Origin: Escherichia coli
Lineage (GTDB): Bacteria > Pseudomonadota > Gammaproteobacteria > Enterobacterales > Enterobacteriaceae
Strand: one strand, 5' to 3'
Assembly: GCF_003790525.1 (NCBI RefSeq)
Contig: NZ_CP033635.1
Length of the DNA: 64,000 bases
The notes beneath the pieces are model-generated. The model had not been told where the DNA came from. It worked only from the letters and a program-made list of their open reading frames with translations, and ran no database searches. The translations under genes and the position numbers were made by a program. Position 1 is the first letter of the stretch, and every line of letters starts with the position of its first letter. This document shows, one piece after another, positions 6,230 to 11,101 of this stretch.

Positions 6230-7161
6230 GATACCTTCCTTATCTACTTCCTGTTATATGCTTCTCCCCATTATAAATATTACCATTGTATTAATTTCAA
6301 ATTAACTAATTAACTTTCTCAGATGATGCCTGACATCAGTAATACACTGATTCTATCTTGTAGTGAGGACTTTTAGCACCAGTTCACTGAGCTCATGCTT
6401 AACTGCATCATGGAATCTGATGTCAGCTGGCCTGTGACAGGAAAATTATCGAACCGGAAAAGTAAAGTGGAACTGAATTCACACTGAAGGAGATATTTCG
6501 ATTCACAGCATGCTGGCTCAAGGTTTGTTGAATAAATAGAACTTTTGGGTAACTGGAGGAGCTGAGCGCAACCGTAGCTTACACCGGCTCCCCATGGCAA
6601 AGTTAAATTTTAAACTCACCAGACAAGTCGCACACAGCCAGGTACTGCTGACCGAAATGAAACCGTCTTTTATGATCTGGTCGGCAGGATAGCGTCCTTC
6701 GTCAGAAATACTGGTATGTATTGCTCCGGCTCAGAGATTTAACTTCAGATACGGCAAACAATTGCTGGAAATTGTTGCGTAAGTCGTTGACTGAATTGAA
6801 TATTTACTTAATCCAGAGAGTGCAGAAGAAAGTCATTTAGCGCAATATGAAGACTTTATCGCAGCATGGCCCCCGTTTTGTGAAGCCTGGGGATCGTCCG
6901 TTATTACTGATGACGCTTATCGTACCGTTCCATGTTCTGGTCTCAGGTCCGGACAGCCTGTTCCGTGCAATTTTCGATGAGCAGGGCATTCCTGCCTGGC
7001 TGGGGGAAACAAAATGCCGGAGCACGACAGCCGTCAGAATCGATCGTCTGGCAGGTATAAAGATATTGATGTTCTCTGTTTTGATCACGATAACAGAAAA
7101 GACATGGATGCGCTAATGGCAAGCCCGCTGTGGCAGGCTGCCCGCGTTCTGGACAAAACCA

Positions 7162-7671
7162 TTGGATGCAAAGCGTGAGTATACGAATTGCGCTTTTCCC
7201 CGCGTCATTGCCGCGTTTTCTGTCGCCGTCATGCTTGCTCTGGTTGTATGCGTAGTCTGGCAAGTATTTAGCCGCTACGTACTTAACCAGCCAAGTACAT
7301 TAACCGATGAGCTGGCACGCTTTTTGATGATCTGGGTAGGATTATTAGGTGCTGCATATACCGTCGGCGCGCAGAGACATCTCTCTATCGATTTATTTGC
7401 TCTCGCCCTGAATAAGCGCAAGCAATTACTTCTTAGTATAGTCATTAACATTCTCATTTTAGGTTTTGCCGGTTCGGTCATTGTGACTGGTGGCCTGAAA
7501 TTAATTGATAAAACACTGACAACATCACAGGTATCTGCCGCGATGCAAATACCGATGGGATACGTATATATCATTCTGCCATTAAGTGGATTGGTGATGA
7601 TGTTTTATGCCTTGTGTTTTATTAATCAAAGCATTCAACAACTGAAACAACCTGCGCAGGAGGCCAGTTAA
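7162..7671 (+). CDS. dctQ: TRAP transporter small permease subunit (DctQ-like)
   Basis: 169 aa, four predicted TM helices, ...FSRYV... motif typical of DctQ; immediately upstream of and abutting the large subunit. Confidence 0.7.
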   Translation: MDAKREYTNCAFPRVIAAFSVAVMLALVVCVVWQVFSRYVLNQPSTLTDELARFLMIWVGLLGAAYTVGAQRHLSIDLFALALNKRKQLLLSIVINILILGFAGSVIVTGGLKLIDKTLTTSQVSAAMQIPMGYVYIILPLSGLVMMFYALCFINQSIQQLKQPAQEAS

Positions 7672-8972
7672 TGGATAGTTATATCGCGCTTACACTGTTT
7701 GGCTGTTTTTTTGTGCTGGTCTTTATTGGTGTGCCCATTTCGTTCTCAATCGGTATTGCCACTGTAGCTTCAATGCTGTTGATGTTTCCCTGGGATATCG
7801 CGGCAATCACTGTTTCGCAGCGACTGGCTAATGGACTGGATAACTTTGCCCTGTTGGCAATCCCCTTTTTCATCTTTGCCGGAACGCTGATGAACAGCGG
7901 CGGTATTGCGATACGTTTGATTAACCTCGCCCAGGTAATGGTTGGCCGCGTTCCTGGTTCGCTTGGTCATGTGAACGTCCTGGCGAATATGATGTTTGGT
8001 TCCATTTCTGGTTCAGCCGTTGCGGCAGCTGCTGCCGTTGGTGGCACACTGAATCCCATTCAGACCAAAGAAGGTTATGATCCGGCATTTTCTACCGCTG
8101 TAAACGTCTCATCCTGTATTACTGGATTACTGATACCGCCCTCAAACGTGTTAATTGTATTTTCCCTGACAGCTGGCGGCGTTTCTGTAGCATCGCTATT
8201 TATGGCGGGATATTTGCCAGGGATCTTAATGGGTCTCGCGGTAATGATAGTCTGCGGCATTATTGCTAAACGCCGTGGCTACCCACTTTCAGAAAAAGCA
8301 ACCTTTGCTCAGGCATGTAAAGCGTTTCTGGATGCCTTACCAAGTTTGCTTCTGGTGTTCATTGTAATGGGCGGCATTCTGGGCGGCATTTTTACCGCAG
8401 CTGAAGCGTCAGCAATTGCCGTGGTCTACACATTTATTCTCTCGGTGCTGATTTACCGGGAAGTAAAATGGCGCGATTTACCCAAACTGATTCTGGAATC
8501 GGTTGTTACCACTTCGATTGTATTACTGTTGATCGGTTTTTCCGTGGGCATGTCCTGGGCAATGACCAATGCTGATATTCCTTATATGATCAGCGACGCG
8601 TTGATGGGGATTTCTGATAACCCACTGGTCATATTGCTGCTGATTAATATCGTCTTATTAATTGTCGGCATCTTTATGGACATGACACCGGCTGTACTAA
8701 TCTTCACACCAATCTTCTTGCCGATTGCACAAGAGCTGGGAATGGATCCGGTACATTTCGGTATTATGATGGTGGCCAACCTTTGTATTGGGCTGTTAAC
8801 ACCGCCGGTGGGTAGTGCGCTATTTGTTGGTTGTTCTATTTCAGGTGTGAAGATTCAACATTTGCTTAGACCATTGCTACCCTTTTATACAGCATTGCTA
8901 GTCGCATTGATGATGATCACTTACATTCCACAAATCTCTTTATTTATCCCACAATTTCTAGGGCTGATGTAA
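7671..8972 (+). CDS. dctM: TRAP transporter large permease subunit (DctM-like)
   Basis: 433 aa polytopic membrane protein with DctM-like glycine-rich segments; start overlaps the dctQ stop (ATGGA...). Confidence 0.85.
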   Translation: MDSYIALTLFGCFFVLVFIGVPISFSIGIATVASMLLMFPWDIAAITVSQRLANGLDNFALLAIPFFIFAGTLMNSGGIAIRLINLAQVMVGRVPGSLGHVNVLANMMFGSISGSAVAAAAAVGGTLNPIQTKEGYDPAFSTAVNVSSCITGLLIPPSNVLIVFSLTAGGVSVASLFMAGYLPGILMGLAVMIVCGIIAKRRGYPLSEKATFAQACKAFLDALPSLLLVFIVMGGILGGIFTAAEASAIAVVYTFILSVLIYREVKWRDLPKLILESVVTTSIVLLLIGFSVGMSWAMTNADIPYMISDALMGISDNPLVILLLINIVLLIVGIFMDMTPAVLIFTPIFLPIAQELGMDPVHFGIMMVANLCIGLLTPPVGSALFVGCSISGVKIQHLLRPLLPFYTALLVALMMITYIPQISLFIPQFLGLM

Positions 8973-9110
8973 ATAATTAATAGCCGGACAATTTTTATTG
9001 TCCGGTAAAATTCATCGTAAGCGCTCCTTCTGTGCCGTCTTGTGGTGGTTGTCCTGTCTGGCAACAATCGCGTCCATCTATTGATGGACACGAACGATGT
9101 GGATTTGCCC

Positions 9111-10016
9111 CTATATATCCAGACATCTGTTATCACTTAACCCATTACAGGCCCGCTGCCGCAGATATTCCCGTGGCGAGCGATAACCCAGTGCACTATG
9201 CGGATGCCATTCGTTATAATGCTCGAACGCCTCTGCAAGGTTCTTTGCTGCCGTTAACCCGTCTGGTTTGGGCATGACACTGATGTAGTCACGCTTTATC
9301 GTTTTCACGAAGCTCTCTGCTATGCCGTTACTCTCCGGACTCCGCACCGCCGTGTTCTTCGGTTCAAGCCCCAACATCCGGGCAAACTGCCGTGTTTCAT
9401 TAGCCCGGTAGCATGAACCATTATCCGTCAGCCACTCTACTGGAGACGCCGGAAGCTCGTTGCCGAAGCGGCGTTCCACCGCTCCTGGCATTACGTCCTG
9501 TACTGTTTCACTGTCGAAGCCGCCCGTAGTGACTGCCCAGTGCAGTGCCTCACGGTCACAGCAGTCCAGCGCGAACGTGACTCGCAGTTTTTCTCCGTTA
9601 TCACAGCGGAACTCGAACCCGTCAGAGCACCATCGCTGATTACTTTCTTTCACAGCCACTCTGCCGGTATGTGCCCGTTTCGATGGCGGTACAGCGGTTT
9701 TTCGCTCAAGCAACAGCGCATTCTGGCGCATGATCCGGTAAATACGTTTGGCATTGATCGCAGGCATACCATCAAGTTCTGTTTGTCTGCGAAGCAGCGC
9801 CCATATCCGACGATAACCATATGTGGGTAGCTCTCCGATAACATGGTGTATACGGCGAAGCACATCCGTATCATCCGTGTGACGGCTGCGGCGTCCGTCC
9901 TTCCAGTCATCGGCTCGTCTGAGAATTACGTGCAACTGCGCACGCGACACCCGGAGACAACGGCTGACGAAGCTTACTCCCCATCCCCGGGCAATAAGGG
10001 CGCGTGCGCTATCCAC
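9111..10016 (-). CDS. insD: IS2 transposase InsD (OrfB)
   Basis: 301 aa; DDE integrase-core sequence recognised as IS2 InsD. Confidence 0.95.
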
Positions 10017-10339
10017 TTTTTTGCTCGCCCATATTCAACGGCTTCTTTAAGGAGTTCATTTTCCATCGTTTTTTTGCCGAGCAGACGCTGGAGTTCTTTA
10101 ATCTGCTTCATGGCGGCAGCAAGTTCAGAGGCAGGAACAACCTGTTCTCCGGCGGCGACAGCAGTAAGACTTCCTTCCTGGTATTGCTTACGCCAGAGAA
10201 ATAACTGGCTGGCTGCTACACCATGTTGCCGGGCAACGAGGGAGACCGTCATTCCCGGTTCAAAACTCTGCTGAACAATAGCGATCTTTTCCTGTGTAGT
10301 ACGCCGTCTGCGTTTCTCCGGTCCTAAGACATCAATCAT
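9974..10339 (-). CDS. insC: IS2 InsC (OrfA)
   Basis: 121 aa from the internal Met ([18 protein letters not shown]...), HTH protein; overlaps insD as in IS2. Confidence 0.9.
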
Positions 10340-11101
10340 CTGCTCTCCAATGACTAGTCTAAAAACTAGTATTAAGACTATCACTTATTTAAGTGATATT
10401 GGTTGTCTGGAGATTCATGGGGCCAGTCTACTCCCGCATTAAAATATACTGTTCTTTCCGGATAATTACGTTAAAATAGACACCTGCGTGCATCTGTGTC
10501 AGACTCCGTTAGATACCAGCGTACATTGTAAACATGCCGGATGCACGCAATACAATAATCGGTCTTTTCGGAGTTATAGTCGCCAGGCTGGCATCCCGTA
10601 AATATGTATCAGGTAGCAATTCAGGAAGCGAACAAAAGCGCCTGGAGAAGGTTATCTCTGATAATAATTTACATGAAATGTCTCCTTTATTCTTCGCGAA
10701 TAAGGCCTTCAGTGTTCTCCCCTTTTCAGCAATTCTTACCGTAGTAATCACTCCTGCCTGTGTATAACACGAGAATTGCCAGAGTTTAACGTTTCGGTAT
10801 CGTTATCCTGCATGATGTTGAACAGAACCGGGCGTGAATTCTGCGCCAGAATTTTCTTTCGAGGAACATTCCGGGTTATCTGTAGTACAGGAGGAGATTT
10901 TCTCCTATTTCAAATAAAATTCAATGACAGGTGAATATTTAAATATAAATGCATCGCTTCAACAGAGAAATCGGAATTACGCCCGGAACCAGGCCTGAAT
11001 GAATAATGGAGTAGGTAAAATAATATTATTGATGAAACTATCAAATCAAGTCCCCCTTCTCCTTCCCCAGCTTAAATATACTTACTTTTTCACTGGATAA
11101 T

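Follow-up and report, generated by a model that had tools for sequence, protein, structure and literature searches.

The TRAP permease genes dctQ and dctM studied here are most probably (roughly 85%) the decaying remains of a dctPQM operon, acquired horizontally and located in a mosaic Escherichia coli island, in which dctP was lost at a joint with CCGCG microhomology and an IS2 sits at a second joint. The window, that is, the whole 64-kb stretch of DNA that was analysed, also contains a tRNA-SeC gene (selC) at 56538-56632. The locus is already annotated, and it is an ordinary TRAP operon leftover in routine island decay. Its overall significance is small. It does illustrate the stepwise erosion of E. 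coli island DNA, with an IS-flanked operon from which a microhomology joint removed the binding-protein gene and which, in most related genomes, later lost its permease genes too.

Both permease ORFs are intact and lie on the plus strand. The small permease gene, dctQ (7162-7671), encodes a complete Pfam DctQ domain (PF04290, E=1.6e-30, model positions 1-129 of 132), and the large permease gene, dctM (7671-8972), encodes a full-length protein of 433 aa scoring 471.4 bits against TIGR00786 (cut-off 268.45). The strong AGGAGG Shine-Dalgarno sequence belongs to dctM itself. The dctQ gene is chimeric at its 5' end: the native start codon, the ribosome-binding site and the first 11 codons have been replaced, the ORF starts with TTG without a clear Shine-Dalgarno sequence and, according to an alignment of N-termini, the first 13 residues of DctQ are foreign. 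Promoter-like sites upstream occur at chance frequency, not above it; dctQM may be expressed from an unrecognised promoter. Non-synonymous changes relative to the island copy of strain LH50-c number only 3 and synonymous ones 7, so that the sequence so far shows no sign of decay. A terminator-like hairpin (CCGGACAATTTTTATTGTCCGG, 8984-9005, no strand assigned) follows dctM and is the last part shared with the native E. coli locus, homology stopping at about 9009 in the alignment with H105 and LH50-c and in the blastn match ends.

The sequence-only reading had described dctQM as lacking a solute-binding gene, and tblastn searches with native and island DctP queries (E<0.01) likewise retrieved no DctP homologue in the 64-kb window. 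The membrane components Q and M are shared with TRAP systems that depend on a binding protein, such as SiaPQM, which differ from the window in that the latter has no binding protein in cis; published work, reviewed in PMC5812351 with reference to Mulligan et al. 2009, indicates that TRAP membrane components require their binding protein. The TRAP system of the BEN2908/AGI-3 paper is a different one. Two kinds of intact copy were found in E. coli, both with the order dctP-dctQ-dctM and dctP upstream. The first is native, arranged hemW-dctP-dctQ-dctM-yggM (H105, CCL28_RS04750-04740; GF60, ACHP5I_RS05615-05605), and dctQM is present at this locus in 1462 of 5426 genomes, counted as complete genomes with a homologous dctQM segment at 80% coverage or more. 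It is 97.3-97.8% identical in DNA to the window from 7200 to about 9009, with the same stop-start overlap between dctQ and dctM and the same hairpin past dctM, and the H105 DctM shares 425 of 433 residues with the window DctM. In the window copy, by contrast, dctP, the DNA upstream and dctQ codons 1-11 are missing, and the genes lie in an island rather than between hemW and yggM. The second kind is the single island copy of LH50-c (NZ_CP100500.1, 908788-911626), which is 99.4-99.5% identical to the window over 7200-9099 (DctM, 431 of 433 residues) but retains dctP and the native dctQ start. Its DctP has 329 aa, of which 308 are identical to the native DctP of 328 aa (about 92% in DNA). Among solved structures, the nearest to DctP are structural-genomics entries such as 4ovr and 4n15.

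The orphan permease pair arose through loss of dctP, and this loss occurred at the junction upstream of dctQ, at 7199/7200, separate from the IS2 joint. Homology to both native and island dctQ begins exactly at 7200, which corresponds to a point 32 bp into native dctQ, while the DNA to the left of the joint is fhuD/fhuB-like (81-86% identity) and its fhuB similarity extends to 7211. At the joint (7197-7211, plus strand), where illegitimate recombination has brought fhuB' up against dctQ codon 12, lies the CCGCG microhomology, which runs on imperfectly through TCATTGC; no IS end is present at 7199/7200. On the left stands a fhuD' pseudogene fragment (6644-7138, plus strand; 81.3% identical by blastn to fhuD of E. 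coli O157, L010 5001-5501), followed at 7143-7199 on the same strand by the fhuD' 3' terminus together with the initial 9-10 or so codons of fhuB' (85.5% identical to the fhuD/fhuB boundary, L010 5587-5655). The latter begin with a GTG at 7175 (V-S-I-R-I-A-L-F-P) and are out of frame relative to dctQ. The same joint was confirmed by sequence in GF60, TUM9803, Ch1, Br_112, strain 144, TUM10828 and GF124.3. A single illegitimate recombination at CCGCG would have joined the decayed foreign fhuD'-fhuB' remnant to dctQ codon 12 and taken away dctP, the upstream region of the operon and the native dctQ start, either as a deletion in cis or by the joining of separate DNAs. Among the genomes searched, none carried a foreign fhu operon together with dctP in cis, and a plasmid search for a source of fhuD' or of the island dctPQM gave no closer match than the genes of E. 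coli itself.

Fourteen other complete genomes carry the upstream fhuD' region at a coverage of at least 80%, and only two of them, GF60 and TUM9803, have dctQM whole among the matches listed. The remaining 12 have since lost the greater part of dctQM by deletion; five of these, checked by sequence, end at 7534, and in the others the match was too short to rank among those listed. In GF60, the closest relative, the native dctPQM is intact and lies about 195 kb away. TUM9803 has also lost 9526-29489 in a further deletion and has a single dctQM place, so there is no native operon there. The orphaned pair might still work with a DctP made elsewhere, for which the native hemW-yggM operon is the candidate, although we consider this unlikely. 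The intact ORFs, DctQ domain and dctM Shine-Dalgarno sequence are consistent with such a role, as are the presence of a native DctP gene in GF60 and the close match of the window proteins to those of its native operon (DctM, 424 of 433 residues; DctQ, 154 of the 156 shared residues identical). However, neither the native promoter nor the native start of dctQ remains, the island copy would add nothing over the native DctQ and DctM (about 98-99% identical to the island proteins), TUM9803 has no native operon and the deletion of dctQM in most joint-carrying genomes argues against selection for keeping it. That the orphaned pair is still expressed and works, whether partnered in trans by the native DctP or with no binding protein at all, appears very doubtful; if true, it would offer a natural way to learn whether the membrane components of TRAP systems can be shared or can act alone. 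As judged from its sequence, dctQM alone would not work as a transporter, since a binding protein in cis, the native promoter and the native start of dctQ are all missing, and we infer that the pair is an intermediate towards complete loss. Where this locus is annotated as "TRAP transporter small/large permease", a working transporter should not be assumed.

As the sequence-only reading had noted, a complete IS2 begins 127 bp past the dctM stop codon and its flanks are unequal. This element (9100-10430, minus strand, 1331 bp; IRR at 9100, IRL at 10430) encodes OrfA (NF006928, 275.8 bits, cut-off 229) and OrfB (NF006918, 693.7 bits, cut-off 597), with the frameshift motif AAAAAAG (-1) in their overlap. 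Its ends, TGGATTTGCCCC... and ...GGGGCCAGTCTA, form imperfect terminal inverted repeats, the 33-nt arms being 76% complementary. In length, terminal repeats, ORFs and A6G frameshift site it agrees with IS2 of the IS3 family, from whose other copies compared it differs by 3-4%. The element is preceded by ...ACGAACGATG and followed by CTCCCGCATT..., so that CGATG on one side faces CTCCC on the other and a 5-bp target-site duplication is lacking; control copies of IS2 have perfect duplications (GCCTG in GF60, CCGCT in AR13438).

The absence of a duplication is explained by the position of IS2, which joins an IS66-family element to unrelated IS-rich DNA and marks a rearrangement joint. On its left, 9017-9099 (plus strand) is the left end of the IS66-family element, 98.9% identical to DNA annotated as IS66-like TnpA or helix-turn-helix protein in many genomes. 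An IS66-type end at 29963 of the window itself served for comparison. The match starts exactly at the terminal GTAAGCG repeat and includes the first five tnpA codons before being cut off by IS2, which thus falls within the first 83 bp of the element. The right flank (10431-11100, plus strand) is unrelated to the left one and 99.3-99.6% identical to two other loci (L008 and L009). HCM-22C-2 has this right-flank DNA uninterrupted (...CCGCTCATGCAA running directly into CTCCCGCATT...), with a transposase pseudogene before it, and the AR13438 IS2, with its proper CCGCT duplication, lies 12 bp away. In a test for a simple chimera, the window IS2 was about equally distant from both putative parents, with 41 differences from the dctM-linked copy of LH50-c and 46 from the sodC-linked copy of AR13438. 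The right IS2 flank of LH50-c was considered as the continuation of the IS66 element and rejected, as it does not continue it.

It had been proposed that dctP once lay downstream of dctM and that IS2 deleted it along with adjacent DNA. The missing duplication and unrelated flanks do indicate that some adjoining DNA was lost or rearranged, and the view of an orphan pair left by dctP loss, with IS2 at a rearrangement joint, holds. IS2 as the remover of dctP does not, and we regard a downstream dctP as highly improbable. Besides the upstream position of dctP in both kinds of intact copy, the native gene after dctM is yggM, which is convergent, and the loss of dctP maps to 7199/7200, where there is no IS end. 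Furthermore, LH50-c has the same IS66-type end and then IS2 after dctM, in the same orientation (its IS2 junction lies 11 bp further right, with 11 extra bp before IS2), and it has kept dctP; dctP was therefore never downstream, an outcome that the sequence-only reading had itself named as refuting its proposal, and IS2 was not its remover. The ancestral module was probably dctP-dctQ-dctM followed by the IS66-family element and IS2, LH50-c being one complete genome still so arranged, and the separate second joint could reflect either a one-ended IS2 event (an adjacent deletion) or recombination between two IS2 copies. An absent IS target duplication should thus not be attributed to the nearest missing gene before gene order has been checked in intact relatives.

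A short ORF upstream of dctQ had also been suggested as a possible dctP remnant, at 6847-7158. The actual ORF spans 6847-7116 (89 aa), lies inside the frameshifted fhuD' and matches the NCBIfam FhuD profile NF007864 (positions 163-232, E=4e-14). Consistently, tblastn with FhuD residues 91-296 matches fhuD' (E=9e-33), although only the equivalent of these residues is present, in several frames with stops and with an 85-bp deletion. It is hardly conceivable that this binding-protein gene fragment, although directly 5' of dctQ and on the same strand, forms a hybrid in which an ABC-type protein serves the TRAP permease, as fhuD' lacks the N-terminus and signal peptide and is interrupted by frameshifts, internal stops and that internal deletion. 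In RefSeq it is likewise listed as a pseudogene (FhuD/TroA). An iron ABC permease pseudogene of GF60 (L007 35288-35735) was examined as the rest of fhuB and rejected, and no FhuB match was found elsewhere in the window. Such a fhuB remainder further along the island would have shown insertion into fhuB. The fhuD' fragment is about 82% identical to fhuD in about 5400 genomes and, in GF124.3, one of the five genomes ending at 7534, is split by an IS.

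The TRAP permease pair of the window consists of dctQ at 7162-7671 (Pfam DctQ match, E=1.6e-30) and dctM at 7671-8972 (TIGR00786 match, 471 bits). Both genes are real, and no homologue of the binding protein DctP is encoded across the whole 64-kb window, both as the sequence-only reading had proposed. That reading explained the orphan state of dctQM, that is, the absence of dctP in cis, by an IS2-mediated deletion downstream of dctM. The loss of dctP and the presence of IS2 at a rearrangement joint stand; the position assigned to dctP and the causal role of IS2 do not.

Of 5426 complete E. 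coli genomes, 1462 carry the dctQM segment (7200-9009) at a coverage of at least 80%, with ~97.6% identity. Gene order was examined in two native copies, that of H105 and the second copy of GF60, and is dctP-dctQ-dctM in both, with hemW on one side and yggM convergent downstream. A closer, island-borne dctQM copy (99.4%) is present in a single genome, LH50-c, where the order is likewise dctP-dctQ-dctM, with an IS110 fragment at the left and IS2 at the right. Among complete genomes, only LH50-c has this island-type dctP, to which native dctP is ~92% identical. Given the order shared by the native and LH50-c copies, dctP belongs upstream of dctQ: the two types of intact copy that were found both have it there, and a position downstream of dctM is without any support. 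The surviving ORFs of the window differ from LH50-c by 3 non-synonymous and 7 synonymous changes, a near-absence of change that fits recent orphaning and is neutral as to function.

Homology to both intact dctQ versions starts exactly at 7200, 32 bp inside native dctQ. To its left lies a decayed foreign remnant, made up of a fhuD-like segment (6644-7138; 81-86% identity to E. coli fhuD) and a segment resembling the fhuD/fhuB boundary (7143-7211; 81-86% identity to E. coli). Compared with fhuD, this fhuD' carries an 85-bp internal deletion, frameshifts and stop codons. The ORF just upstream of dctQ, once suspected of being a dctP remnant, is FhuD-like instead (6847-7116, matching FhuD profile positions 163-232, E=4e-14). 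A fhuB-like GTG start at 7175 (V-S-I-R-I-A-L-F-P) leads into dctQ codon 12. The fhuB' and dctQ partners have CCGCG in common at 7199/7200, with imperfect similarity extending through TCATTGC, and an IS end is absent; fhuB'::'dctQ is thus a microhomology joint. With this joint, native dctQ lost its ribosome-binding site, its start codon and its first 11 codons, and dctP and the upstream region went as well. The annotated dctQ start is now a TTG (7162) without a clear Shine-Dalgarno sequence, dctM retains its own AGGAGG, and promoter-like matches upstream of dctQM occur at chance level only. In GF124.3 (locus L013), the fhuD' remnant contains ISEc23 (IS66 family) at the equivalent of 6777-6784, with an 8-bp overlap that fits the target duplication of this element.

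The IS2 (9100-10430, minus strand, 1331 bp) is complete, with intact OrfA and OrfB, the A6G frameshift motif and terminal repeats. It begins 127 bp after dctM and is flanked by CGATG on the left and CTCCC on the right, so the 5-bp duplication is absent, all as first described. This absence is meaningful, because GCCTG and CCGCT are perfectly duplicated around two control IS2 copies from related genomes. Native-locus homology stops at ~9009, past the post-dctM hairpin, and the 83 bp from a GTAAGCG terminus at 9017 to IS2 are an IS66-family left end comprising the inverted repeat plus five codons of tnpA; numerous copies with an IS66-like TnpA annotation match it at 98.9% identity. This fragment recurs in LH50-c, where IS2 follows after 11 additional bp. 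The right flank is continuous with different DNA in HCM-22C-2 (...CCGCTCATGCAA directly followed by CTCCCGCATT...), and AR13438 carries an IS2 with a normal CCGCT duplication 12 bp from the window's junction. With an IS66-family flank on the left and different DNA on the right, IS2 links two unrelated IS-rich sequences. What was lost there is the remainder of the IS66-type element and its neighbours; dctP went at the microhomology joint, which refutes a role for IS2 in its loss. Either a one-ended IS2 event that deleted adjacent DNA or a recombination of two IS2 copies with each other produced the IS2 joint; the window IS2 is about equidistant from dctM-linked and sodC-linked copies.

Independent IS2 junctions lie near both window junctions (9099/9100 and 10430/10431), 11 bp away in LH50-c and 12 bp in AR13438. 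A local preference of IS2 for certain targets could account for this, as could small secondary deletions. Between the window IS2 and the other IS2 copies compared there are 41-55 differences in 1331 sites. For the orthologous GF60 copy there are 12, clustered in two patches (9486-9534 and 10139-10238), the first carrying the variants of other IS2 copies; this patchiness looks like gene conversion among IS2 copies. A stand-alone stretch of 49 nt at 18910-18958, near a YebF pseudogene, matches the right-end repeat of IS2 at 81.6% and is probably a relic IS end. Right of IS2, 11590-18293 encodes sodC, a four-gene ABC transporter, a glycerophosphodiester phosphodiesterase and a ROK regulator; AR13438 and HCM-22C-2 share this stretch only as far as sodC.

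The fhuD' region is present at a coverage of at least 80% in 14 other complete genomes, and the fhuB'::'dctQ joint was sequence-verified in seven genomes, including GF124.3, which falls outside the 14 as an IS splits its fhuD'. GF60 (99.7% over 6200-11100) and TUM9803 (100% over 6200-9525), the closest complete genomes, are the only ones of these with whole dctQM, and TUM9803 has a separate deletion of 9526-29489 with CGCCC microhomology. In strain 144, TUM10828, GF124.3, Ch1 and Br_112, dctQM ends at 7534. This position is linked to DNA at 30029, with or without IS2, in the first four, and to an IS2 lacking its right end, then different DNA, in Br_112. Whole and truncated forms together mark the window arrangement as an intermediate in stepwise erosion. 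The right-hand sequence TTTCCACTG... at 30028/30029 (also L005 8666/8667 and L011 6303/6304) is joined on its left to any of three partners: IS66-side DNA (window, TUM9803), an IS2 end (Ch1) and dctQ 7534 (strain 144, TUM10828, GF124.3). The Ch1 joint is the strain-144 joint plus IS2, with an overlap of only 1 bp and no 5-bp duplication.

TRAP membrane components are reported to require their binding protein (review PMC5812351). Since the orphan dctQM has lost its native promoter and dctQ start and has no binding-protein gene in cis, it is most likely nonfunctional as a transporter. The main alternative, that dctQM uses native DctP in trans, appears improbable. GF60 has an intact native dctPQM ~195 kb from its island copy, and TUM9803 lacks a second dctQM copy. 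Another DctP-type protein of GF60, annotated as "C4-dicarboxylate TRAP transporter substrate-binding protein", is encoded at 1169967-1171010 (L016 9968-10001), adjoining mscS, so this strain has several TRAP binding proteins. Independent dctP loss with dctQM remaining is seen on the IncFIB plasmid CP088648.1 (L018, 84292-94912), where a chromosomal yggS-to-trmB segment including the native TRAP locus has the 5' part of dctP cut off by an IS1.

The window DNA comes from a mosaic, IS-rich E. coli island, with tRNA-SeC at 56538-56632. RefSeq already annotates the locus in exactly this way, as a FhuD pseudogene, small and large TRAP permeases and an IS3-family transposase, and it represents ordinary island decay. 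The island also encodes a 1274-aa S6-family peptidase of the serine-protease autotransporter type (21663-25487), and IS1414 (IS256-like) transposase genes are present at ~1655-2860 and ~25625-26833.
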